Assembly: GCA_045837725.1 (NCBI GenBank)
Contig: JBEWZL010000124.1
Coordinates: 1-64,000, forward strand
Origin: Vermamoeba vermiformis
Taxonomy: Eukaryota
Length of the DNA: 64,000 bases
Direction of reading: 5' to 3'
A program made the position numbers and the translations under genes. Of this stretch, positions 1 through 52,271 are shown one piece after another; the first letter of the stretch is position 1; each line of letters opens with the position of its first letter. The notes below the pieces were generated by a model. That model saw only the letters and a list, made by a program, of their open reading frames with translations, had not been told where the DNA came from and ran no database searches.

Positions 1-162
1 TTTATGATATAATAGTGAGACCCTCCAGTTTGTATTGGCAGTCTTGTTATTTTTACCTTTTTTTATTTATTTAACGGATTTGTCTTCGGTCGCGGAGCTG
101 GACCTCTACGATTTCAGTTTTAACCATCTCCGTGCTGACATGACCAAGAGAAATGTTTGTAC

Positions 163-510
163 ACGGAGACGACCAGCGAGACATTCTTTTTTTGTAGATC
201 GTCTCCACGTGGAGACGACCTGCGAGACTTTATTTTTTTGGGATCGTCTCCACGCGGAGACGACCTGTGGGACATCGTAGTTTTTTTAGGATCGTCTCCA
301 CGTGGAGACGACCTGCGAGACTTCGTAGTTTTTTAGGATTGTCTCCGCGTGGAGACGACCTGCAAGACTTTGTTTTTTTTTAGGATTGTCTCCGCGTGGA
401 GACGACCTGTAGGACTTTGTTTTTTTAGGATCGTCTCCACGTGGAGACGACCTGCGAGACTTTGTTTTTTTATGAGATCGTCTCCACGTGGAGACGACCT
501 GCAGGACTTA
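163..510. repeat. Tandem array of 7 full + 1 half units (period 45-48 bp), each with the 20-bp palindrome TCGTCTCCACGTGGAGACGA
   Basis: Palindromes start at 199, 244, 292, 339, 386, 431 and 478, with a half copy at ~163. They are separated by similar CCTGCGAGACTT + poly-T + AGGA linkers. Confidence 0.95.
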
Positions 511-635
511 GTGTTTTTGAGCATGTCATTCGGGGTGAGACTTCTTTTTTCCCGTGGATAATTTTCCAAAGTAAAATTTTGCTTAAGTAAAAAATGATCG
601 GGGTCGAAAATTCTTTATTTTTTTGAGGGGGTGTC

Positions 636-1083
636 AGGGCTAGCCCTATATGGGCAAGCCCACTTACATATATGAATTCTGTGTTTGAGTGTAGTCCAAG
701 GACTACGGTTGATGGAGAATTCTGCACCGGTTGGACATCCATGCAAATGAATAGACATTTTGCAAGTATGCATATTCAAAATAGTTACCCGATGAAACTA
801 AGTTCCTTACCTTTAGGCTCAATCTTCATTGTAAGCCTGCCAAGGCTAATGGATGGGAAAACACTGTTTGTGATTCAAAATTGGGAAAATGAAGATTGTA
901 CAGATTTTAGCCATAATTGTATATTCAAAAATAAATAACGTTTATTCGAATCATGGGGTTTTATTCAAAAATATGACATTTTCCAGGCTTTAGGCCTATA
1001 AGCCTTAAATTAGCTAAGCCTAACTATATATATAATTTTTAGGGCTAGCCCTGTTTGGCCAAGCCCTGTAGTATATATGAATT
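636..1083. repeat. Direct repeat pair (636-678 / 1041-1083) starting with palindrome AGGGCTAGCCCT, plus an internal copy (990-1036) of the junction hairpin motif
   Basis: agggctagccct-N-gg.caagccc-N-tatatgaatt occurs twice. ttaggcctataagccttaaattagctaagcctaactatatatataat at 990-1036 closely matches 5541-5587. Confidence 0.85.
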
Positions 1084-1676
1084 TACATTATGTAAAAATG
1101 AACATACCATTACCTATGTGGTGCGTTGCAAGCTAGATTGATATCAGAACAAACAAGAAAGAGGATTCAAAAGAACATGTGGCACAAAAAGGCGCGCTGG
1201 CATCCTATTGGTCAGAAGAATCCTTGTATTTGATTGGTCTATTTTTTTGTATATATATATTCATACTTTGTATATACAATTCTGCGTGTCGTTGCCTGGC
1301 CTGCAGTTTGTTGCATAGAAGTACGAAAGCAACCGAACTAGAAACTTTGTACTTGCCAGGGATGAAGTATGTTTTATTATTCTTTTGAGCTATCAAAATA
1401 AAACTTGACATTGCAAAAATAATTTCTATGCCCAATTAGGAAAAGTCGGTTAACGAAAAGTCACGTGATCATAAACTTCGGAAAAAAAGTAGCGGATCTG
1501 GAATCAACTTTACCATTTTCGATGCAAAAATGACTCTGGTAGGTGCAGGTGAAGCCCCACACCACTGTTTTTGACCCTTCCGCTGCGCATTTTTTCCTGC
1601 CTTGACGGTGAATTCAGTATAAACATAATAAAAATTTGAATATACATTTTTTGTGGCCAATGTCCAAGCAACACTG

Positions 1677-2567
1677 ATGTCGTTTAAAAGGTTATTTGGA
1701 AGAAGAATTAGGGCAAGAAGGATTCTTAGACGAAAGCTTCCTGCTAGGAGAAAAATTCCAGAGACTATTAAATGCCTGACTGACGACGATCCGCTTGTGC
1801 AAAAACTGAAGCTAATCACCACTGAGTAAGCATTTAAAAAAACATCAAAAATATTTTCTCTTTTAACAATCAAATACCTAGCTGGATATTGCGGGATAGC
1901 AATGGAAAAGTCATCCTACGATTTTACAAAAATAAGATCCCGAAAAAATATTTAAACAACTTGGTCAAGTCGTCCAGAGCTCTCAAGGCAGCATTCAAAC
2001 CTCAAATTAAAAAATCAAAAAGCTATCACCTCGGTTATTGGAGAAGGTTTCGCCGGTTTATGTTCAGATCTGCGGACGCCAACATCAGCTGCTGGTTGCA
2101 TAATGGGATCTTCCTTCACAACAAGCTCAACCAACAGTTCTTTGGCATGATTGACACCCTATTTTCACAAGTGGATAAGAACCTGTGCAAGGAATATTGG
2201 GAGGTAAGCGAAGTGAAAATGAATATACATATTTTAATAATGTATATACAAAAATATAAAGGTAGAAACTCCTGGCCCAAGACTGGTTGGAAAATCCTTT
2301 CTGATGTGTGTCGTTAACTGGGGAACTACAGGCCCCCACTACGACCACATGGATAGACCCGATGGTCTGTGTTGCGTCGTTCCCTTTGGCAACTTTACGG
2401 GAGGTGATCTTGTCTTCAGAGACCTTGGTTACCGTGTACAATTTGAAGCTGGAGATGTAATCTTCTTCCAGTCTCAGAAGATGTTACACGAGAACTTACC
2501 AGCCTCTGAAGATAGACAATCTATTGTCTTTTGCTCTGATAGATTCTGCTTTCCCAAGGAAGAATAA
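1677..2567 (+). CDS. TET/JBP-family 2OG-Fe(II) dioxygenase (~258 aa; exons 1677-1825, 1882-2203, 2262-2567)
   Basis: The spliced frame is open. It has an Arg-rich N-terminus, HLGYW, then HYDHMD (HxD), GLCCVVPFGNFTGGDLVF, GDVIFFQSQKMLHEN (distal His) and RQSIVF (2OG-binding Arg). This is the motif pattern of fungal/algal/Naegleria-type TET/JBP enzymes. Confidence 0.85.
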
Positions 2568-2577
2568 AAACCAGATT

Positions 2578-4215
2578 AATGTATATTCATATTTATTTTT
2601 TGTATATACATTCTATTCGCATTTGCACGCTAAGCTCACAACTTGTTTCACCCAACATGCTATCAAGAGGCATTACGTCAAACATGCTAATTATTACTAA
2701 ATAATACTCACAACTTGTCAGCTTTGGTCAGTTTGATTCTCTTCTTGATCCGATCTTAATCGCAAGCATGCGATCCTGGCACAACTAGCACTTGTAAGCC
2801 TCTCTCAAGCACCTGTAGAGTGCAATATTAATAGGTATTCTCTATTATCGCAATCACTTAACTTACCACTATCCAGGGAAGTCTCCACCTGATCGGCAGC
2901 GGATGTGCACGTGTAACTGGATCGATGAAATCTCTGATACTAATGTTAGTAAAAATAAACCAAATATACTACTGCATTACTTGAATTATTTTATATAACA
3001 ATCTATCATTGTAATGCAAAAACTTGAATATTCTGAAAATAAATATTTTGTAACGGCTAGATCCCGTGTAAATTAAAATGAAATCAAAATTGGGAACTCA
3101 CAAGGTCACCAGCCTTACGACGTTATTATTATTATTATTATTATTATTTATATTACCTTTAATGAGCTGGTGCAAGCCATACAAGAGGACTGATTATTCT
3201 AGATCGGACCCGTGATCGAGCCGACACACCAAGTCTTGTTACTGAGGGCACTGGTGACCCTCTTTCTGATATCAATAGAAGCACACCTGATGTGTGCTGT
3301 AGTTGGTGAATGTTTGATGAAATACAGACACCTGGTTACTCATAAATTGTTCGGCACCACGTGCCTGCCGCAATTTTTTTGATAATTAGATTTGTGTATA
3401 TTCATTTTTATTTTTTGTATATACATTTCATCGTGGAGCCATACTGACGGCCAACTAATGCTCAATTCCATCCTGACCATACTCCTAATGAGAGACATTA
3501 GTTAATAAATACAAAGTATTATTACAGAATACTTACAAGTGGCTGGCAACAGTCAGATCAGATCTTCAACAAGATCGGCAAGAGTACGTCAGCAGCAAGC
3601 CTGGCTTTACCTGCAATTTACAGCATCTCCAAAGCACCTAGTACGTGTAACATCAATACATACTCTGTATAATTGCAATCAGTTAGCTTACCACTATCCA
3701 GGGAAGTCTCCACCTGATCGGCAGCGGATGTGCACGTGTCACTGGATCAATGAAATCTCTGATACTAATGTCAGTAAAAATAAATCAAATATACCACTGC
3801 GTTACTTGAATTATTTTGTGTAAGAATATGACACTGTTATTTAGAATTTTGAATATAAGTGAAATAAATATTTTGTAACGGCTAGATCTGAAATAATTTA
3901 AAAATTAAACTGACTACGAAGTTAACTCCTAATGCTACCAGCCAAAATTCAACAAGATATTTATACATACATATGTAAACTTACCTTCAATGCTCTGCAA
4001 AGGGCCATGTAACAGGGCTGACATATTCTCGATCGGTGTGCAGATCAAGATGGCATGCGAACTCTCATTACTGAGAGGTCTCATGACTCTACTTTACATA
4101 TCAATAATGGCACATGTGTTGTGTGCCTTAGTTGCTACATGTTTGGATTGGAACAGCTAGCATGTTACATGGAAATTGTTCGGTGGCACGTGACTTGGTT
4201 CACAACCCAAAAAGA
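2578..4215 (-). repeat. Diverged tandem duplication (~815-830 bp unit x2) with conserved minus-strand splice signals and no clean ORF
   Basis: 2860-3060 and 3685-3890 are nearly identical. 2705-2815/3530-3640 and 3155-3362/3980-4192 are alignable. Minus-strand GTAAGT/GTGAGT donors and AG acceptors sit at equivalent positions in both copies. Confidence 0.8.
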
Positions 4216-4559
4216 ATTTTTTTGATCTCATTGTTATTTCATAGCCAATATGGCAACCATCTCTACAATGCATCTTTCAACCAATGTACACTAGTTTTGT
4301 GAAGTTCTGGGAAACGGTGAGTATTACGTTTATACATTAAACAATTTTGTATATTCATTTTTACATATTTACATTTTTCGATTCCCAATTTAATATATCA
4401 ATGTTAACAATGCAGATTACTTATTATTATCTATCGTTTAATAACTTATAAACGTTTTATTAAAACCAAGAGCAGCTGTGGGAACTTCTTTGGTTGGTGG
4501 ACTGGATCACCAACATCTTTAGCTTGGTGACCAGTTATAACTGGCAGAAGTATCGCAAA

Positions 4560-5215
4560 TTCTTCAGTTGGGCGTAGTCCAAGGACTACGGGCAGTCAGG
4601 AATTCTGACATTCAGTGTTTCCTGGGAAACGCTCACTCAGGAATTCTGGACTTGAGCGTAGTCCAAGGACTACGGTCTACTGAGAATTCTGCAATCCAGG
4701 TGTTTCCTAGGAACATGTTATCCAGGAATTCTTCACTTGAGCGTAGTCCAAGGACTATGGACTATGAAATGTAAGCCCTCGACTTTTGTATATACAAAAA
4801 TACTTTATGTATATTCATTAAATTTTTTAAATTTTTTTTTTTTAAATTTTTTTTTTTTTTTTTTCGTTTCGGTTTCGTCCCTACTTTCTCCCCTTCCCAA
4901 TAACGCTTTTTTATTAACTCGATAAAGGTGTACTGCGATGCCATTGCAGTAGTGGATATTTTATCATTGTCTACAGCAGGAAAAAGTTACAAGGAAACCA
5001 AGGATCAGGAATTCTTCATTTGAGCGTAGTCCAGGGACTACGGTCAGCCACGAATTCAGACACTCTGTTTCCGTAAACGCTTGCCCATGAATTCTGGACT
5101 TGAGCGTAGTCCAAGGACTACGGTCTAGTGAGAATTCTGAAATCTAGATGTTTCCTGGAAACGAGTTAGCCAAGAATTCTCCATTTGAGCGTAGTCCAAG
5201 GACTACGGTCAGCCC
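4560..5215. repeat. Two triplets of an ~80-85 bp unit containing the hairpin CGTAGTCC-AA-GGACTACG, with a solo copy at 690-707
   Basis: Core at 4573, 4657, 4742 and at 5025, 5105, 5190, usually preceded by GAATTC...TTGAG. The triplets are separated by a poly-T tract at ~4822-4864. Confidence 0.95.
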
Positions 5216-5585
5216 AGACACCAAAGTGTAATCGGAGTGGTTTTGAATATACAAAGTTAATGAGTGTACATTCATTTTTACTATGGAAATATTCAAAATG
5301 AGTGGTTGATGATTTCACAGGTTAATTCATTCAATCATTCAGTCCAAGGAGTTCTTGCAGACAAAAAGGCTAGGATTGTCCGTGCATCTCAACTTTGTAC
5401 ATGGTTGTATCACTATGACCCCCACAGGCAGTGATGAATAATTTACTCAATTGAGCATGCACTATAAAATTTTGAATAAACAATCTGGACTTTTATATAT
5501 TTATTTTACTGTTGTATGGGTTTTGTACAAAAGTTCTGGATTAGGCTTATAACCCTTAAATTGCCTAAGCCTAAGTATATATATA

Positions 5586-6966
5586 ATCCAATATCGTCGC
5601 GAGAAGTGTCTAACGTCCTTAAAGGTGATTTTTTTGCGCTTTTCTTCAATCTTTTCCACTCTAGCAACCCTAACGTGCCCGAGCATTAAAAAAAGATGGT
5701 GAAGGCAGATCCACGATTAGTTACCTCTTCTTAGCGTGTATATCCATTATTACATAAACTATGACAGCACTGAAAGACAACAACGATGTTATGGCAGCTA
5801 TTAGTGTCGAATTAGGATTGCACCGAGATCTGCGTAACGAAATAATTACCAAGCCACAACGCATAAATGTAATCACCCATCAGGATAGCGGCTTCTTCTT
5901 CAACATTAAATGACAGTACTGAGCCCTAAAATTAAGTTAGGAGGTGAAAAAAACCGAATTAAAGTTTTCCGTGCCAGATGTGCCACCGTATTTGTAACGC
6001 CCATTGCCAAAGACAAACGCTTGCCCGCAAACCACTCGACGCACATACTGCTTTGGATAACTATTCAAAAGTTAAATTCGGAAACAATATTCAAAAAAAT
6101 AAGCGCAACGAAGCGACCTTCCGCAGATTCGGCACCAACTCTAAAAATAGTAAATCAATTATACTAATATGATTAAATTCTTAGTGACCTGACTTACCCA
6201 AATATAAATCGCCCGACAAGCATAATAATGTACGCGAGAAACGAATCTAACCCAAGCCAACGTTTTAACGAGGGACCAAGGGCACAGATGATCGATCCGG
6301 CGAGAAAAAGAGAGCCAAATATTAGGATACTCTTTCTATTACCAATTTTATCGCTTAAAAAACCGCCAGCAATTACCAAGACGATGTTTGGCAAGGCATA
6401 CAGCGAAAATAATAAGCCATATAATGATTTGCTAAGCGATAGGTCCTAATTAATGATAATAATATTAAGAGATATGAGGCACATGAATCGCAGCTACGGT
6501 TGTCATTACCTTGATCAGATCTCCTTCCAACGCCGAAACGGAATCGTAAACGAAAAGCCCTCCAAAAGCTGCATAATATCACTGATTAGTATTGCATTGC
6601 TTAATTGTACTCGAAACTAATCTCAATCGTAACATCCTCGAAATGGATTTGCCACTTACGTACCAATAAATGCAATGCATATTAAAACAATGATCTTGTA
6701 GAACGCGCCTACAGGTTGACGCGCCTTCGATGCCAAGCTTTTAGGTAGAAGTTCATCCTTTTCGAGACTCTCGTAGTCGTCGTAACCTGAAGAGCCACCC
6801 AACGGCAATATATCTGCAAGTAACTAAGTATTGATTGGTAATTACCGCCCATTATATTGGTTTGGTGATAGATACAATTGTATCCAATAAGATTCTATTC
6901 AAAGAAGTATTGGCGGATTGGAAGTATAATTATCTTACCGGTTTGATAATGGTCTTGAATTGACAT
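5586..6966 (-). pseudogene. MFS transporter (MFSD1-like), N-terminal half only, interrupted at ~5585
   Basis: Spliced exons give MSIQDHYQT...FVYDSVSALE...LFSLYALPNIVLVIAGGFLSDKIG...GRFIFGVGAES...WFAGKRLSLAMG...ITFKDVRHFSRRYWI. The second 6-TM half is not found in the window. Confidence 0.75.
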
Positions 6967-7438
6967 TAATTGTAATCGAATAAGAAACCACGAACAATCT
7001 TTTTGTGCCAGAGATAATGCCTTGCGCCGTATTTTGGCCCAGAAACGTTAATCTTAAGTTTGCTGTTCTGCGTTCCAGTTCCTTGAAAATATGCCCGATT
7101 AAGAACTCGAACGGATGGCCGAAACGTAAATTAATTCGAAAACGAATTCGCAATCGTTAGGAGCGTGTTCGAACCGAGTCAAGACAAAAACAGGAGAGAT
7201 CTAAAAAAAAGAAGTTGGTTAAAAGAAAGATCCAGAGGTCGACAATCTCGTTATACCACCAGGATTATATTATTGCTCCTAATATAACGTACTTGAATTT
7301 TGTAGAAATCACAAGTCGTAAAACTTCAATGACGCGTGATCTCGTTGTAATTCTGCATCCGATACTCGTACTGGAATTACGCTGTTTTAAAGCTGTATGC
7401 TACAAAAGTTTATAAATAGGCAATGCTACACGAGGTAC

Positions 7439-8529
7439 TTATTTGTTTAACATCATGGTAACCCAAGGTTGATAGTTGATGTGACCCGTGTTGTGTGGAT
7501 CTGCTTCGCTGAGCACCATGTTCACTTCGTCTTCAGACATCTTCTCACCCAACTCCATCAACACATAGCGCAACTCATTTGTAGAGATCATTCCTAAGTA
7601 CAAACGATTAGTAGGGCTCGAATACGAAAACAGCGCCCGAGTCAGGCACTAAAATAGGAAGTGGTAGCATACCGTTCATGTCTTTATCGAACACCGAAAA
7701 GGCTTGACGAATCTCTTCTTGATCGTCTTCTTTGACTTCGGACAACTTGTTCATTGCCGCGCAGAACTACGAATTAGCATTAGTATCGTCATTTGATCGA
7801 GACCCGCGGTAAATATTTAGTAATTACGTACTTGATCGAAGTTGAGGCGGCCTTTCTTTTCAGTGTCGAAGGTAGAGAAGACTTGTTGCATATCAGCTTG
7901 TGAGGGCTTAAGGCCAAGCGATCTGATATGCATTATTGTATTAGCAAGGCATTTCGTCTTAGTGATCCGCGAAATTACAATGTAGTTTTTGAAAGAGCGA
8001 ATAATAAAATTCTTCTAGTAGTAGGTTTTGAAACATCGAGCGTACCTCATAACTTTAGCACTCTCTTCCATGTCGAGATTTCCTGATAACAAAATGGTTT
8101 AAAACCGAAAAGAAAATTATAATAACAATAAAATATAAATCCGTTTCTTCAAATAATGTATAATTTGAACGAGCACTTGAACAAATTTTTCGAGCTGCTT
8201 TAATTTTGAAACTCGATCGGGTGAAATTATAACTGTAATGAATTATTTAATTGCAGTGCAAAATTCATATTTAATTTAATACTACATCAACGTAAATTAA
8301 GCCAGTAATTTTAAAAGAGATTGATTTTTCTATTTTGACGCGTATCTTTTTGATTTTCGACTGACTTATCTTGAAATCAGAAATAGAAATTTAAATACCA
8401 TAGATATAATAAATAGGCATAATTATATTTATAGTAATAACATTGATAGTGCTACCTACCATTACCGCTTTTATCGAACAATTGGAAGGCCTCACGCCAC
8501 TCTCCAACCAAAGGATGCTGTGCTGCCAT
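7439..8529 (-). CDS. Calmodulin-like / myosin light chain EF-hand protein
   Basis: Five exons: MAAQHPLVGEWREAFQLFDKSGNG...RSLGLKPSQADMQ...[47 protein letters not shown]...INYQPWVTMMLNK*. Confidence 0.9.
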
Positions 8530-9429
8530 ATTTGTTATTAATAATATTTCGAAATAATAATGCTCTTTGTCTCTGCTTGATAATTTAAAAAGAAAAATCT
8601 AGCGGAGTCGTTAAGATTTTATCTCGAGAGAAGAGGTCAACGAAGTAAGTTAGCAACTTAACTAATTCGTCCCTATTACATAATAAAAACCTACGCATCA
8701 CTCAAGGCAAAACGGAGCAGCACGGCACTAACGTCGCTCACATTCGGCGGCGAGATCAGCAGGTAATAATCAAATGAGGTCGATTATTATTTTACAAATA
8801 AATTGCACTTAATATTATAAATAATAATAAGTAAATTCTTGTCCTTTCTTTTTTGGATCGATCTTCCAATGTCGGTGAACAGTCCTGGAGCCAATCCAAA
8901 ATTATTACAATCCGAACGAAATATCTCCGCAGGTTGATTTGAAATTATCATATTACTTCTAAGTCCGAAACAATCCGTGAGCCTCGGTGAGCTACTCGAG
9001 ATCGTTTCAATCTACTCGTTTAGAATGCTGAGTTTGTAAACCTGAATCTCCTGCAAGAATCAGGTTCGAATACTATTTACGAAATTGACACGCATCGCGT
9101 AATTTATTTCCGAATTACATAATTTCGACCTATTGTCCCGCCGGCACACACTCCACGATGAATGTAAGACAAATACTAATTTATTCTGGTAGTACAATTT
9201 AAACGTCATCTGTAGACGGTCTATTATGATCTATGACATACGAAAACATTTGTCCATTTATGGCAAGTGTGTTACCTCCGAGGGAGATTAAAGCTTAAAT
9301 CGGTAAACTCGGTTTTGGCCAGCTATTTTTTTTCAAGCCACTAAGTGGAGCGTCACATAAGAGGTCTAATTGTTCTCAGCTTGAACCTCTTTTGATTAAT
9401 CGTAAAGGATCCGGAAGATATTTTAAAGG

Positions 9430-33976: not shown

Positions 33977-36900
33977 ATGGATAAAATTGTAGAGACAGCC
34001 TTACGGTCTGTGCTAAAAGTAAGGGATCTTGTTTTTTAGTAGAATTTGGCCCATTTAAATTCGGAGTACTATTTTTTTTGCGCATTAAACTGATTATTCC
34101 ATGGTACCCTTTTATTACTGCCGAAGGATATAGTTTTTTGAATTTTTGGAGGGAAGATCTGATTTTATTGTTAGAAATATTTTGGCTTCACGAGCTTTCG
34201 TGAGCACCAAGAAGATATAATTCGAGCGTGCTTGGAAGGAGAAGATCAATTTGTTTGCATGCCCACAGCTTCAGGAAAATCTTTGTGTTACCAGATGCCG
34301 CCACTCGTAACAGATAAAGTTGGCATCGTAATCTCGCCTTTAATTAGGTACAATGTCCAATAATTACTATGTTTTTGCGTATTACTAACGAATCAATGCA
34401 GTCTGATGAATGACCAAGTTATGAAAATGACTCAGTAAGCTTGCACGAGCATGCAGAATTAATTTTAACGTAGAAATTTGAAAATAGATCGAATATTAAA
34501 GCCACATTTTTGGGTTCTGGTCAACAAGACAACTCTGCATTCTCGGATGCCATGAAAGGCAACTATTCAATTGGTACGCCATCCTAATTCATATCATGAT
34601 GCTAATTTATCGTATGGTAGTATATATCACACCTGAAAAGCTGAAGAGTTGCATTGGCGAGTTGAGAAATTTGCACAAAACAAAAGGCATTCAATTATTC
34701 GCCGTTGACGAGTCTCATTGCGTCTCTGAATGGTAATTAACAACGTTATATGCTAGCATAAATTAATGTGTCGTTAATAGGGGTCATGAATTCCGAACGG
34801 ATTTTGCCAAACTCGATGTTATTCGCCAGAACTTTCCGGATGTACCTTTGATGGCGCTGACAGCCACTGCAACCTCAAAAGTTCAAGCGGATATTATATC
34901 CAAATTAAGGCTAAGAAATCCGAAGATAACCAAAGCATCCTACAACAGGTAATCAGGGTATTTTCGAGAGTCTGGATCTTGCTCACTCTGTTATCATTAG
35001 GCCCAATTTATTCTACGAAGTGAAGTTGAAGAAGAGCATCGAAGAAGATTTATCGTTTTTAGTAACCGAAACTCATTCAACAATTATTTATTGCCCAACC
35101 ATTCAAGAGACGGAGGACGTGGCGCAGTTTCTAAAAGCACGTGGCGCCAAGGCAGCGTTTTATCACGGCAAAATGGACCATGTGTTTCGCAATCAAATTC
35201 ACACGCAATTTGCAACGGACGAGCTCAACATCATCGTGGCAACGATTGCATTTGGCATGGGCGTGGACAAGCCTGATGTGCGCAATGTAATTCATTATGG
35301 TCCTTCCAAAAGTATCGAATCTTATTACCAAGAGTCTGGGCGTGCTGGACGTGACAGCTTGTCAGCTAAATGCGTCATGTTTTACGTACCACAAGGTCAG
35401 GAACACAATTCTTCACGCCAAAAGTACGAGCATTAACAACCTGAGCAGATTTTACCAAAGCGGATGTGAGGTTCAACATGAGCCCTGATAAAGTGGTGCG
35501 GGCGGAGAATAAGGACAAGTTACAAGCAATGAAAGATTATGCGACGAACACGATTGCGTGCAGGAGGAAAATGATCTTGGAGTACTTTGAAGAGCAGTAC
35601 GATCCGTTCAACTGCGGCAATTGTGACAATTGTATGGCCATTTTGAACAACAGCAATCACTCCATGCAAGATTTTACCGAGGTAATGGATCGAGGACACG
35701 CGACTTTGAACAGCATTTGATGGCTAACTTATTATTTAGGATGTGTTACTGCTGTTGAAATCGATTAAAGCCACGGGCGAGAGATACGGCTTGACGGTGC
35801 CTATTCAACTTCTGCTTGGCAAGAAGGATAACAGATTGATTTCGACTGACGGTAAGAATGACAAGGCTATCCAACAGCACGCTAACACCTAGGCACAGAG
35901 ATCACTGGAGTGTCAGGCAAAGGCAAGATAAGGTCAGAAAAGTGGTGGAAAGAGCTCGCCATGGTGATTAAGAACTACAAGTTGATCGAAGAAACGAGTT
36001 CGCAGTTCTACGTGACTTATCGATTGAGTCCTAAAGGCGCACTAATCGTGTCTAATCCTGCTGTCTATTCACCGATAATGTTACCCGCTACAAAAGTAAT
36101 GACCGCGGAAGAGCTCGCTGCTGAAAAGAAAGCCCGTCTAGAGTACGTTTATGACACGTGTCAATGCAGTGGTACTAATCAAGACTTATTTAGGGAGTTG
36201 CGTAATCCTCAACACAAGTTCAAAAAGATGGACGAAGAGACGGTCATGCTGTTCGGTGAGCTGTTCAAACTGCGCAAAGAACAAGCTCAGCAGCGAAAGA
36301 TTGCACCGTACATGATCTTCAGCGAGGCTGTGCTCGGTCTACTGTCGAAGCACAGACCAGCTGATGACACGCACTTCAGTCTCATCGAAGGCATTGACGA
36401 GCAGAAAGCGAAGGACTACGGACCAATATTCACGAGGGCAATTGCTGACTTTTGTCTAGCGCACAAGCTCGAAACCAATGTATTCGACAACAGCACACTG
36501 GACAAGAGGTAACAAATAGAAAACGATTGAAAGAAGGTACTAATCGGGACTTTATAGTGAGCATAGAAAAGCATTATTACCACCAGCACAGCTGAAGAAA
36601 TCAACGAGTAAGATGCGCGGGCAAGGTGCAGTCATGAACCCGAGCGTCAGAAGGTCAAATCAAATTGTCAGCGAGGAACTTAGTGATGACGATGACGATG
36701 CCATAGCCGATGCCATGATGAATGAAATTGATGAGCCAGTGAAGAGTACTAGTGCCAGGCAAGAGACAAAGGCCAAAGATGAAATGGAGGTCACACAAGG
36801 GCCCGGCGATTACGACGTTGTGCAGTTAGACAACAACGAAGAAGCGACACAGAAACGAGGCATGAAGCGGAAACTACCGTCTTGGTCACAGCCACGTGCT

Positions 36901-46866: not shown

Positions 46867-49404
46867 ATGGATGTTGAACGAAGGATAATGGTGATTGGCC
46901 CTGCCGGTGCAGGTAAAACGATCTGGCCCTTGGGCCCTTCTTCGCGCAAATGCTTACTATAAATTACAGGAAAATCTACTTTCCTTATCCAATATTTGTA
47001 CAATCACTTTGTAGAAGAATATGACCCAACTATCGGTAAGAAAGTTTAGATCGATTTCAATTTCGTTCTCGGCTCCTTTGTTAATTTATGCAAATTTATA
47101 ATTCTCACTGCATATTAATTAGTATGAATATTGCTAATTTTATCAAAATATTTAGAGGATTCTTACCGCAAGCGGGTCAACGCAGATGGAGTGGTTAGTT
47201 TCCGCAGGTCACTCTTTCCGACACTAACTAATCTTTGACTTGATAGATTCTTCTACTTGATATATTTGACACTGCAGGTAATAGAAAACAAATTTGACAG
47301 CAATTGTGGATTGATCCAAAATTGATTCCAAATTACGATGCAGGTTTTCTTGATGAAGCTAGTCCCGCTGACCCGTAAGTTCTAGAAATGAGTCTGCCAT
47401 TAATAACTAAATGATATCATATTAGAATGACAGCATATGTGTACGCAGGGGTAAGCGATTGGATCCGCAAGTTTTTTTTGTTTACTAACCGCACATAGCA
47501 CCTCACAACAGCGCGCATGTTAATTATAGTCTACGATATAACAAAGAGATCTAGCTTTGAGCGTGTCACAGACTATTGGTACAAAGCTAAAGAGCAGCTT
47601 GACGAGTCTAACGCAACGCATCCGGTCGTGTTGCTCATTGGAAACAAATTGGTACTTTTATCGCAATTATAATATACCAATGATTATACTATATTAATAC
47701 ATTATTCAGGATTTGAAAGAACAGCGAGCAGTGAAGACAGAGGAAGGTGAACAATTGGCCAGAGAACTCGGCATGATGTTCGGCGAGCTGTCGTGTACGT
47801 GATTCATATTATACCTCATCGTAACAATATCTTATACATTAATATAGCTAAAACAAGAGAAAATATGGACGAGGTAAGGATTCCAATTGCCTTTTTGAAC
47901 TGGATCTAACGAGTCGTAGCTGATGCAAAGAGCAGTAAGAGAAATAGCATTGACAATCGATTACGCTCGTGCAAGTAAGTATTGCGCGGCTTCGACCTAG
48001 CATAGTAGCTCACTCATCTCCTGCAGGTGAGTTCAAGCCGACCATCAAAGTGACACCTTCACACCAAGCTGGCCGCATGTCATCGCTGCTGAAATCTCCG
48101 ATATTCTCGGATGCAGTAGTCACTCTCAACGAGCACAAGTGGAACGTACACAAGTTCATGTAAGTGAGATATGATCGTAGTGTAAGTATTCAGAACTGAC
48201 GAGTGAACAACGATTGAAACAGATTGTCAGCACGAAGTCCAGTGTTGTTGGAGATGTTCAAAGATCCATCGATCAATCACGCCACTATCAAAGGTGACAA
48301 TATCAGTCCTGAAGCAGTGTCAGCGCTCCTTCATTACATGTACACAGCACTCGTTGACTTCTCACCCAAAATTGCATCGCAAGTCGCAGCTTTGAGTGCT
48401 GAATACAAAGTAGAAATGATTGGTGATATTGCTGCTGATATTGCCAAAAAAGGTAAAATGCTGCCTTCAACTTGGATGGCCAATTGACACCCGCTTGTCA
48501 GGCTCGTACTACCCGACTTCGGAGTCCCTTAATACACGTACAAATAAGCTCAGTGCAGATTTGCTTCGCTTTTCAAATATTGCACAGCAAGACGGTCATC
48601 CTGCCTTTGATGTCGCACTGAAAGTCGATCATCAGAAACCAATATTGACGTCACGTGCGCTACTTGCACTCAACTCAAAATACTTTATGGACCTCTTCGA
48701 GAAGGTAAATAGCTCCTAATACTCCTATCAATTGCTAACTACTACTAACTCGCTAAGTAGCACCAAGAAATGGAAGTCGAAATTGACCTTCCTCATTTGG
48801 ATCGCGCCGCCATGTCACGAATAGTCGATTGGATTTGCGGCAATCAGCTCGCACAAATAAATGCAGCTAGTACCGATGCAGAGTTGATGAAAATGTAAGG
48901 AATCGAGTCGAGTATTTCCTTTTATGGTATTTACTAACTTCATTCTTTCAGTGCGGCAACATTCGATTTGCCAAAGTCGTTCATTGAAGCAATAGAGTAT
49001 AATATCTCTGTTTTCACTGTAAGCGATAACACTCTATCCACGGCCTCTCTAACGTAGCCTATTTTAGCTCAACTTTGAGCTGCAGACCAACCAGTGGCTA
49101 GCACTGCTGAATCAAAGCGTTGGAGAACAGATCAAAAAGCTCGCTGAGTGGCAAGCTGCCGTCAAGTATAATCATATTAGCAAACAAGCGTACGTTTAAT
49201 TTTACTCGTCAATTATACCCCTATAAGTACTTATGTGCTTTAGTGACCTTTGGAAGAAAATCAATTCCAAGTCGCGGAAAAGCATCAAAGAAATGGCCGT
49301 TCAAATTGGTACTTTAGTCGACGAGAAAAAGAAGAAAGGTGATTATACATCTAAATCGCACGATAATTTAAACTAACGCACTTTTAGATTGTGGCATTTT
49401 GTAG
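46867..49404 (+). CDS. Ras-like GTPase - BTB - BTB - CAAX fusion, copy 1
   Basis: GPAGAGKS, EEYDPTIEDSYRK, LDIFDTAG, GNKLDL; BTB FSDAVVTL...VHKFILSARSPVL...LLHYMYT; second BTB FDVALKV; ends KKKKDCGIL*. Confidence 0.85.
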
Positions 49405-49729: not shown

Positions 49730-52271
49730 ATGGACGACGATATAATACCGCAAATAAAGTTTAATAATGAACGAAAGTTAATGGTCATTGGCGCTGCAGG
49801 CTCAGGTATTTTCGATCCCGATCTGTCAAAATCAAATCAAATAATTTTAAATAATTATCTGTAGGAAAATCATCGTTCACAATTCAATTTGCGCGCCATT
49901 ATTTTGCGAAAGAACACGATGCAACCGTTGGTAAGAAAATTAAGCCAATAATTAATTGTAAAAAGCGACAAACAAAAGCAATTCGCTTAATTAATAAGAT
50001 GAACGCGTTAAATTAAAATATTTAACAACCAGAATGGGTTCATAAATCGCGAGCAACTGCGGATGGGATAGTAAGTTCCTTTAAGATCTCTACCTAATTT
50101 AGAAAGCTAACTTAACGACCTCAGTTCATGGTACTTGATATTTTGGATACCGCAGGTAATGCTAAGCAATTAAAATTATCGTCTAAGAACCGTTCTGACT
50201 CAACCCTTAATTTTGATTTGAAGATCTACAAGAAAGCGAAACGTAAGTTCACCTCCCTATTATTACTAATGAACTGAATAACTAAAAATAAATTTTAGGA
50301 AATTGGCAGCCCAACGCTCAGATGTAAGCCATGGTACCTTTTTCATTGCAATTTAGTAGCTAGTCTAACCGTTTGTAGTTCGTCAACAAACTGCACATGC
50401 TGATTGTAGTCTACGACATTACGAATCGATCCAGCTTTGAGCGTGTCACAGACTACTGGTACAAAGCCAAAGACACGATTGACAAAACCGATGTAAAACC
50501 TGTCACGTTGCTCATCGGTAACAAATTGGTACTTTAATAGCAATTAAATATATACAATGATGATATCAATCCATTATTAGGATTTGAAAGAACAGCGAGC
50601 AGTGAAGACCGAAGAAGGTGAACAATTGGCCAGAGAACTCGGCATGATGTTCGGCGAGGTGTCGTGTACGTGATTCTTATTTATCCTTACCGTAACATAC
50701 TCTTATACATTACTACAGCAAAAACAAGAGAAAATATGGACGAGGTAAGGATATAATTTTATCCTCGTGGTAGTTCAGGATCTAACGGAAAATTGTAGTT
50801 TATGGAAAAAGCTATGATCGAAATAGCATTTGAAAACCCTCGCGCACGTGAGTATTTTAGTTTACCATTTCGGTTAACTCATAAAACGGTTTACAGGTGA
50901 GCTAAGGCCGACCATCAAAGCGACACCTTCGCATCTGTCTGATCGCATGTCATCGCTGCTGAAATCTCCGATATTCTCCGATGCAGTCATAAATCTCAAC
51001 GAGCACAAGTGGAACGTACACAAGTTCATGTAAGTGAGGTACGATCATAGCTTAATGATTCAGAACTGACGATTGAACAGATTGTCAGCACGAAGTCCAG
51101 TGTTGTTGGAGATGTTCAAAGATCCATCGATCAATCACGCCACTATCAAAGGTGACAATATCAGTCCTGAAGCAGTGTCAGCGCTCCTTCATTACATGTA
51201 CACAGCACTCGTTGACTTCTCACCCAAAATCGCATCTCAAGTTGCAGCTTTGAGTGCCGAATACAAAGTAGAAAATATCGGCGAGATTGCTGCCGATATT
51301 GCTAACAAAGGTATGATATATCGCGGCAACTTGAATCAACTTCATATGGCTGATCCAAGCAGGCTCATATACTCCCACTTCAGAGTCCTTAACAGAGCGC
51401 ACAACGATACTAGGCAGAGACCTGCTCAACTTTTCAAAACTGGGCTATCAAAGCACTCATCCTGCTTTTGACGTCGCGTTGAAAGTCGGTGAAAAGCCTG
51501 TACTGACTTCACGCGCCCTACTTGCGCTCAACTCCAAGTACTTCGCTGACCTCTTTAAGAAGGTAAACAATAGTGATTGGATGTATATGAGTAACTTATA
51601 CTTCGTATAGAACCACGATGCAGAAGTGCAACTTGATCTATTTCCTAATTTGGAACGTTGGGCAATATTGCGAATAGTTGCTTGGATTTACAGCAACGAC
51701 TTGTATACCAGCACACTAGGCGGCGACTTTAGCCTCATACAGTAGCAAGTCTTACTACATCCATATTTCCTTTTATGGAAATTACTAACTTTCATGCTCT
51801 GGCGCAGTGCGGCAACACTCGGCATGCCAAAACCATTCATTGAAGCAATTGAGCTCAACATGTCAACATTTATTGTGAGATCTCAGCTTTGAAACTTTAG
51901 TTCGCGTCGTTCTAATACCTTTTAATAATATAGCTCAACTACACGTTAGTACCCGATCAATGGCTAGCACTGCTGAATCAGAGTGTCGCAGAACAGATTA
52001 AAAAGCTCACTGAGTGGCAAGCTGCCGTTCAATACGATGTCGTCAGCCAGCAAACGTAAGTCACGTGGTGTTTATCGTTCATGAACGCTAACGATCCGAA
52101 GCGACCTTTGGAAGAAAATCAACTCTGGGTCTCGCAAGAATATTCAAACCCTTGCTGCTCAAATGGGAACATTAGTGGAGGATAAAAGTAGCAAGAGAGG
52201 TGAGTTATTGTGTCCTTAATGTAACGGAATTCGAGTTAATTGAAAAAACCTTAGGTTGCAGCATTTCGTAG
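49730..52271 (+). CDS. Ras-like GTPase - BTB - BTB - CAAX fusion, copy 2
   Basis: Closely similar exon structure to copy 1. GAAGSGKS, KEHDATVE, LDILDTAD, GNKLDL; BTB1 exon near-identical to copy 1; ends SSKRGCSIS*. Confidence 0.85.

Follow-up and report, generated by a model that had tools for sequence, protein, structure and literature searches.

How does a gene for a TET/JBP dioxygenase come to stand among repeats, directly beside a transporter gene that breaks off within an exon? The question is raised by positions 1-5587 (hereafter the block) of the first 64,000 nt of contig JBEWZL010000124.1 (assembly GCA_045837725.1, Vermamoeba vermiformis); this whole 64-kb stretch was analysed and is called the window below. 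The window is eukaryotic, its G+C content being about 40% and its introns short and of GT-AG type, and the block within it holds the dioxygenase gene, arrays of palindromes, a duplicated unit and repeated end motifs, up to the point where an MFSD1-like gene is cut. A preliminary description had taken the block for a cargo-carrying mobile element; its observation was largely right, its interpretation is plausible but unproven, and the principle behind it is already known. The explanation put first here, with about an even chance of being correct, is that a larger composite insertion of mobile or repeat DNA, of which the block is the right end and TET the cargo, landed in an exon of the MFSD1-like gene. 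The exon break, the CpG boundary, the contrast in copy number and the anatomy of the block are direct observations, as are the enzyme's family and its catalytic residues, and the coordinates of the features are given in Table 1.

Boundary of the block in the MFSD1-like gene

Only part of the MFSD1-like gene is present. Indeed, its exon at 6194-6445 matches MFS_1 of Pfam (E=1e-9), and residues 45-301 of a 482-aa MFS relative (P0153) map onto positions 6796 down to 5567, the homology ending after a Trp codon at 5588-5590, beyond which the frame reads through a repeated motif (the tail motif, see below) whose end is at 5587. The block thus ends exactly where the gene breaks, as the preliminary description had stated. 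Residues ~302-482 of P0153 gave no tblastn match (E<=0.01) anywhere in the 64 kb, and the 12-helix MFS fold is incomplete, only the part matching residues 45-301 being in the window. Since no MFS remainder occurs left of 636 or in 1-165, the inserted DNA extends past the left edge of the window.

The composition of the DNA changes at the same place. The observed/expected (o/e) ratio of CpG is 0.54-0.78 in all ten successive 500-nt windows spanning 501-5500 and 1.09-1.59 in the next seven (5501-9000); for the whole block it is 0.76, vs 1.03-1.38 across 106 equal-size windows of the remaining sequence, and TpG/CpA are elevated within the block. Positions 1-500, which contain array 1, are the sole CpG-rich part of the block (1.42). 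The depletion includes the TET coding sequence (0.61, vs 0.94-1.46 in 11 host open reading frame (ORF) segments). Furthermore, every repeat family touching the block is confined to it, and a near-palindromic 10-mer, TGTATATWCA, has 13 sites in the block, whereas the other 58 kb lack it (0.30 expected), so that the block is distinct from the rest of the window in CpG content, in the 10-mer and in repeat families.

At one and the same base the exon breaks, the tail motif ends, the CpG ratio shifts and the 10-mer reaches its limit, so that insertion of foreign or repeat DNA is the best reading of the 5587/5588 boundary. CpG depletion with an excess of TpG/CpA is the classical footprint of cytosine methylation, and the genes flanking the block lack it; the block would thus be, or would once have been, cytosine-methylated, and the flanking genes would not.

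A boundary of this kind might also arise if two loci had been joined in assembly at the repeated tail motif and the MFS gene were no true neighbour of the TET block. In the contigs of sequencing run X1, which come from the organism itself, depth doubles in the bin 5401-5700 (868 vs ~430) and 5493-5514 is present in two variants of depth 428 and 335; none of the contig pieces among those listed was shown to bridge 5587, and an ORF spanning the junction (5504-5686, minus strand) had no match in a word-index protein search, which is weak evidence. Such a chimera is nevertheless highly improbable: since it is the tail motif that breaks into the MFS exon, an insertion exists there no matter which body follows it; the change in CpG ratio falls precisely on the junction; no loose end of X1 contigs occurs at 5587/5588 among the rows listed (49 further rows exist); and the contig of depth 428 at 5493, together with depths of ~400-430 over 5701-5863, would be consistent with a single-copy contig that crosses the junction. 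In X3, a water metagenome of another study, a contig matches the window to 5588 and then continues into unrelated sequence. The two X1 variants at 5493-5514, close to the right end of the block on its inner side, both differ from the window and would represent either a second copy of the right end or two haplotypes.

Table 1. Features of the block and of the gene at its right border, with positions in the window.
Feature	Position	Strand	Description
Array 1	165-518		47-nt unit x 7.6; 20-nt palindrome with CACGTG core, then CCTGCGAGAC and a T-run
Head motif, copy 1	636-678	+	Two short palindromes, GGGCTAGCCC / GGGCAAGCCC, then a TA-rich stretch
Short unit of dispersed repeat	674-1037	+	One palindrome unit of array 2 type (674-726), one 10-mer site (918)
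10-mer TGTATATWCA (near-palindromic), 13 sites	918-5253		18 strand matches
Tail motif, copy 1	990-1036	+	Ends in TATATATATAAT
Head motif, copy 2	1041-1083	+	Left border of the long unit; 4 nt past tail copy 1
TET/JBP dioxygenase gene, 258 aa	1677-2567	+	Exons 1677-1825, 1882-2203, 2262-2567 (stop included)
Unit A, duplicated non-coding	2613-3385		Core 2863-3069
Unit B, duplicated non-coding	3428-4225		Core 3688-3894
Array 2a	4558-4764		85-nt unit x 2.4; palindrome CGTAGTCCAAGGACTACG flanked by GAATTC
Array 2b	5009-5214		80-nt unit x 2.5; 87% identical to 2a over 134 nt
Tail motif, copy 2	5541-5587	+	Right border of the block; host junction 5587/5588
MFSD1-like transporter gene, 5' half (about TM1-6 and central loop)	5588-6823	-	Coding exon cut at 5588

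The TET/JBP dioxygenase gene

The preliminary description had claimed an intact spliced TET/JBP-like dioxygenase, and this was upheld, as a predicted gene, by a three-exon model, by a Tet_JBP match and by gap-free alignment with relatives. The two introns (56 and 58 nt) have GT-AG borders and the spliced frame is open. Exon 3, which was scanned alone and holds only positions 82-160 of the 164 in the profile, matches Tet_JBP of Pfam (PF12851) at E=1.4e-6 with 28.1 bits (whole-protein cut-off 34.9). A HMMER search against 1.84 billion representatives returned 581 relatives at E<=1e-3, 40 of them at E<=1e-10; the nearest are unnamed environmental proteins (50-78% identity), the closest being an 84-aa fragment with 78% identity, followed by ~16 further clusters at 49-61%. 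Alignment with full-length relatives of 257-286 aa (P0051, P0037, P0052, P0088 and P0018) begins at residues 1-22 of the spliced protein and runs to residues 247-256, and relatives of 257-259 aa match it over its entire length. The gene model is supported because relatives align without gaps over the exon junctions: P0007 and P0018 cross the exon 2/3 junction in this way, and P0018 also the exon 1/2 junction.

Tet_JBP was the top match in nine of the ten relatives scanned, in three of them above the curated cut-off, and one had no match; 25 of the 30 atlas feature matches were Tet_JBP clusters. Among ten long relatives of the TET exon, Tet_JBP was found in eight, PHD fingers in one and a transposase domain in none. 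A family profile of 34 rows (32 relatives and two exons) matches the Naegleria Tet-like dioxygenase (E=4e-12, 222 positions), Coprinopsis CcTet (E=8e-10, 128 positions) and the JBP1/TET oxygenase entry 8jkk. The near-invariant alignment columns H182, D184, H232 and R241 are filled in the window protein by H-Y-D, the His of LHEN and the Arg of DRQS, so that the HxD...H iron site and the 2-oxoglutarate-binding Arg are present. Judged by its sequence, the enzyme belongs to the TET/JBP family with its catalytic residues in place, and the gene is apparently intact, small and NgTet1-like. It resembles NgTet1 (PDB 4lt5, 5cg8) and CcTet (7vpn) as a small single-domain enzyme with HxD...H and the conserved Arg, but is only distantly related to both. 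The N-terminus is strongly basic, and the G+C content at third codon positions (GC3) is 0.48, inside the range of the host (0.42-0.68). The entire gene is contained in an X1 contig that matches 1569-2884 and differs from the window by three substitutions and by the loss of one base at 1843 (intron 1). Word-index protein searches with exon 3 for longer relatives found none. The enzyme would be expected to oxidise 5-methylcytosine and so to counter silencing of the element, as proposed for TET-bearing transposons and endogenous viruses.

Organization of the units and their copy number

From 636 onwards the block is ordered as head-unit-tail (636-1036), 4 nt, and a second head-unit-tail (1041-5587; 4.5 kb), which bears the TET gene. 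The head copies are 81% identical (two in the window, none expected) and the tail copies, of ~47 nt, are 89% identical (two, vs 0.09 expected). Head and tail are also alike in direct orientation, with a score of 22 vs 12.1 +/- 2.3 for shuffles. The heads fold modestly better than shuffles (z=-2.3 for copy 1 and z=-2.9 for copy 2), and the terminal hairpin that had been proposed at 5400-5585 could not be upheld, its folding (z from -0.8 to -1.5) being no better than that of shuffles.

The two units differ strongly in depth. Host DNA (5701-9000) has X1 contig depths of 397-584, typically ~430. The summed contig depth rises to 1250-3095 over 1-600, the area of array 1, and to 7400-9240 in 601-1200 with 15004 at position 788, or ~17-35 times the host level, although summed contig depth is not copy number. 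In X3 it is 40 in the bin 601-900 and 82 at 788, vs ~2-4 for the host (15-30 times). Contigs part from the window at 674, 1032, 1036, 1037 and 1082, and those of X3 at 5543 and 5588, and continue into sequences that differ from one another, which fits dispersed copies and not one tandem array. From these data, the short unit looks like a member of a family of roughly 15-35 copies, and the TET unit looks single-copy at >=90% identity. A scan of bacterial and archaeal genomes with the core of the tail yielded 26 loci, all of them chance matches of 20-21 nt; one further match of 29 nt falls in a TTA repeat at 3121-3149.

Evidence bearing on mobility

Mobility of the block is plausible because the end motifs are common to the TET unit and to its multicopy neighbour. 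The part of the insertion that can be seen would comprise the 47-nt palindrome array (165-518), the short unit (636-1036) and the 4.5-kb unit at single-copy depth (1041-5587), mobilized in trans or through genes left of the window. The ends, directly similar and without inverted repeats, would suggest a single-strand mechanism (HUH or rolling-circle type) or a recombinase instead of DDE cut-and-paste.

Several results weigh against this explanation. The TET-bearing body (1201-5400) has X1 depths of 350-900, similar to the host flank (414-584), and no second copy of it at >=90% identity is evident in these contigs of the organism itself; by depth it is single-copy, which is half of what the preliminary description had itself said would speak against mobility. 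No terminal inverted repeats were found for the units 636-1037 and 1032-5587 (scores 12-15 vs shuffle means of 13-15), and the tails fold no better than shuffles (z=-1.5 and +1.4). Elsewhere, copies of 674-1037 are preceded by a different conserved sequence in place of the head motif, and the family of the short unit is therefore a mosaic without a consistent order of head, body and tail. The ten ORFs of the block and the three TET exons gave no match to any transposase, integrase, recombinase, Rep, helicase-Rep or capsid family, and neither did the 29 scanned of the 37 window ORFs of >=125 aa; the other eight are six minus-strand frames, most of which overlap scanned ORFs, and two plus-strand frames. 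In particular, KDZ transposases with CxC clusters, DDE transposases, tyrosine recombinases and Rep-Hel proteins were absent from the block ORFs and from these 29. Both of the exon-2 substitutions checked in the X1 contig are non-synonymous (H129R and W156R); they sit at positions that vary among TET relatives. Finally, the left end of the block lies beyond the window, so that termini, target-site duplication and full content are not readable. In summary, of the cargo-carrying mobile element first described, the compositionally distinct insertion with its breakpoint in a host exon, the TET gene and the shared end motifs stand; the single-copy TET body and the lack of a transposase among the ORFs scanned do not agree with it.

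These same results bear on another explanation, namely that the gene is an ordinary resident TET gene of the host in a repeat-rich, methylated region of heterochromatin- or subtelomere-like character, the MFS gene having lost its other part through a deletion or rearrangement, or through insertion of an unrelated small repeat. The single-copy depth of the TET body, the short GT-AG introns of host type, the GC3 within the host range, the lack of a visible mobility gene and the mosaic of repeats with variable neighbours would all agree with it, and small stand-alone host TET genes do exist, such as that of the Naegleria Tet-like dioxygenase, the best solved match. We consider it rather unlikely, however, since the base at which the host exon is cut is also the limit of the CpG depletion, of the 10-mer and of the tail motif, and the head and tail motifs that bound the TET unit are the same as those of the multicopy neighbour; moreover, in the lineages studied, and as far as the accessible text of the sources cited below goes, TET genes mostly ride on mobile elements.

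Palindrome arrays and the block-specific 10-mer

Palindrome arrays had been described on either side of the TET gene, as putative binding or substrate sites, and indeed array 1 lies upstream and array 2, in two pieces, downstream; of the two, only array 1 is CpG-rich (1.42, vs 0.61-0.77 in the array 2 region). One unit of array 1 folds with z=-4.3 vs shuffles, and its copies show seven C>T/G>A changes at eight CpG-site columns, which is suggestive, the numbers being small. In the unit of array 2, GAATTC sites flank an 18-nt palindrome, and the unit also has a second one of GTTTCCNGGAAAC type; a single unit of array 2a folds with z=-3.1. A seventh array 2 unit occurs at 674-726, inside the short multicopy unit. 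A protein repeat was considered for array 2 and rejected, since units spaced by 84, 85, 80 and 85 nt do not keep to one frame and stop codons are present. A metagenome scan with the 18-nt palindrome found nine loci, none alike beyond 21-28 nt. Six unrelated metagenome contigs (L001 at 444-560, L003, L004, L005, L006 and L009; G+C 0.48-0.57) share a repeat of ~90 nt, in which the 18-nt palindrome lies inside a longer hairpin of GGGACTACGGGTAGTCC type; the similarity to the window ends beyond 24-28 nt.

Four pairs of the 10-mer are spaced by exactly 21 nt, start to start (2220/2241, 2580/2601, 3395/3416 and 4787/4808). They lie in TET intron 2, which consists mostly of one such pair, 12 nt past the TET stop, between units A and B, and in intron-like stretches. 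These pairs may be binding sites of a dimeric DNA-binding protein. TET intron 2 (2204-2261) and the intron-like stretches 4771-4820 and 5228-5320 begin with GTAAKC, followed 16 nt later by a 10-mer pair, and 2204-2250 is 70% alike to 5228-5274. From this likeness, an intron-borne module could have been copied within the block, and a reading of the 10-mer pair as an introner, though attractive, was set aside.

The duplicated units A and B are 68% identical overall and ~95% identical in a core of ~200 nt. None of their six frames is open with a synonymous excess or coding-type conservation. Of the duplicated, spliced, non-coding-looking unit described earlier, the duplication and the non-coding character were retained and the splicing was not, the only splice-like signals being on the minus strand; in unit A, TACTAAC..AG and GTAAGT frame a 73-nt piece (2867-2939). 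Two Pfam matches on ORFs of the block, DUF6532 (E=0.09, unit B) and RlmN_N (E=0.16), were taken as noise; in unit A, which matched no Pfam family, the corresponding frame is interrupted, and A and B have no conserved frame in common.

The hexamer CACGTG, the core of the array 1 palindrome, occurs nine times in the block and 18 times in the other 58 kb (27 in the window, vs 11.2 +/- 3.4 expected); the block sites are in array 1, at 1462, in the cores of units A and B and at the unit ends 3358 and 4187.

Comparison with known elements

TET genes as cargo have been documented so far in fungi, in Chlamydomonas, in a giant endogenous virus and in Polinton-like viruses. As far as the accessible text of these sources goes, TET/JBP genes are carried by 11 lineages of DNA transposons in fungi, with a proposed anti-silencing role (PMC12730594). 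In Chlamydomonas, TET is found on a Helitron, on a large DNA transposon and on a giant endogenous virus, 10 of the 11 host TET genes lie on a Helitron or a large DNA transposon, and deletion data from the giant endogenous virus support the anti-silencing role (bioRxiv 10.64898/2026.10.09.758095). Among Polinton-like viruses, TET-like genes occur in about half of one group and in 29% of another (bioRxiv 10.64898/2026.06.19.733378). The combination is therefore not a new principle, TET-bearing transposons, Helitrons, giant endogenous viruses and Polinton-like viruses being already in print; the block is possibly a new form of such cargo elements.

Like TET-bearing transposons, the block has a small TET/JBP gene in repetitive, silencing-prone inserted DNA, for which removal of 5-methylcytosine has been proposed. 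Unlike them, it shows no transposase or Rep-Hel, no inverted repeats and no target-site duplication, its TET unit is at single-copy depth, its end motifs of ~45 nt are alike in direct orientation, and its host has not been identified as a fungus or a green alga. Within the limited set of literature searches made, no description was found of a TET-carrying element in an amoeba-like protist, or of this combination of motifs.

Helitrons have a Rep-helicase, 5'-TC and 3'-CTRR ends and a 3' hairpin, and insert between A and T. The block differs from them in that no Rep/helicase gene is present and in that its right end reads ...TATATATAAT and then CC, not CTRR. Replitrons, according to the accessible part of their description, are HUH-Rep transposons with short direct terminal repeats and with non-autonomous partners that share ends of ~50 nt (Craig 2023, PMC10288648). 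Similarly, the two visible units of the block lack inverted repeats and have ends like direct repeats with palindromic sequence near them, and the short multicopy unit has only its ends of ~45 nt in common with the longer unit; unlike in Replitrons, no Rep gene was seen, and whole motifs of 45 nt are similar instead of a 6-nt terminal repeat. The likeness to Replitrons is a resemblance only, not membership.

Integrated viruses are a further possible source of the block, which might be the terminal part of a Polinton-like virus, a Polinton/Maverick or a giant endogenous virus, with the 10-mer as promoter or terminator and the arrays as part of its terminal repeat; most of such an element, with its genes for capsid, ATPase, polymerase and integrase, would then be situated left of the window. 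An element-specific short motif at gene borders is typical of Polinton-like and giant endogenous viruses, and the block has such a motif; the insertion is longer than 5.6 kb, and in those viruses, too, TET is the anti-silencing gene of an integrated element. In the accessible text of the two reports, TET-like genes are frequent in some groups of Polinton-like viruses (10.64898/2026.06.19.733378), and the TET of the giant endogenous virus, implicated in its unmethylated state, is intron-bearing like that of the window (10.64898/2026.10.09.758095). On the other hand, no viral hallmark gene is visible in the 5.6 kb, and no capsid, packaging ATPase, polymerase or integrase was found in the window ORFs scanned; a search of 2.9 million viral contigs (IMG/VR) with TET exon 3 gave no close relative; and the visible part is mostly non-coding repeat, unlike the compact genomes of viruses. 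A viral origin thus appears very unlikely.

To return to a composite insertion with TET as cargo, a more specific form of it can be outlined, and it seems quite unlikely as a whole. The block would then represent an undescribed family of eukaryotic elements without inverted repeats and with direct hairpin-plus-TA ends of ~45 nt, mobilized in trans by an HUH-type enzyme or a recombinase; TET would have been captured in a microbe that is neither fungal nor algal, and the pairs of the 10-mer, as operators, together with the CpG palindromes, would link expression of the demethylase to the state of methylation.

If the block is mobile, TET as cargo would be extended to another eukaryotic lineage and to a type of element without inverted repeats. 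The locus is a compact test case, with a sharply bounded CpG-depleted domain that holds a demethylase gene (by its sequence) beside CpG-rich host genes, at which the idea that TET allows escape from methylation silencing is directly testable. If it is not mobile, it would be a host TET gene in a methylated repeat island by a broken transporter gene, which is of modest interest.

Other features of the window

The remaining window is made of ordinary genes, which include those for an EF-hand protein, a ThrE-like protein, PH and GRAM proteins, a RecQ-type helicase with HRDC, a fucosyltransferase, a dynamin, BTB and CLU proteins and an EGF/PPC protein. The RecQ-type helicase gene (34930-36512; Helicase_C E=1e-22, HRDC E=7e-16) is host content and not a Rep-helicase of the Helitron type. 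Rfam and tRNA scans of the window gave no match. In the EF-hand gene (7400-8100, minus strand), two introns are confirmed by RNA reads (7592-7672, 79 nt; 7763-7832, 68 nt). In runs that carry the same species label, the RNA reads match the window at only 90-95% identity, which indicates that the label spans clearly diverged lineages; the runs X10 and X12, alike at this level, cover 5-6 of 30 bins, mainly in the EF-hand gene (7201-8100) and in addition at 8401-8700, and no read of theirs falls on the TET gene or on units A and B. A tandem duplication (47485-49329 / 50365-52187; spacing ~2.86-2.88 kb, identity 72-95% by segment) covers a BTB-domain gene, the BTB match being in the ORF 51070-51471.

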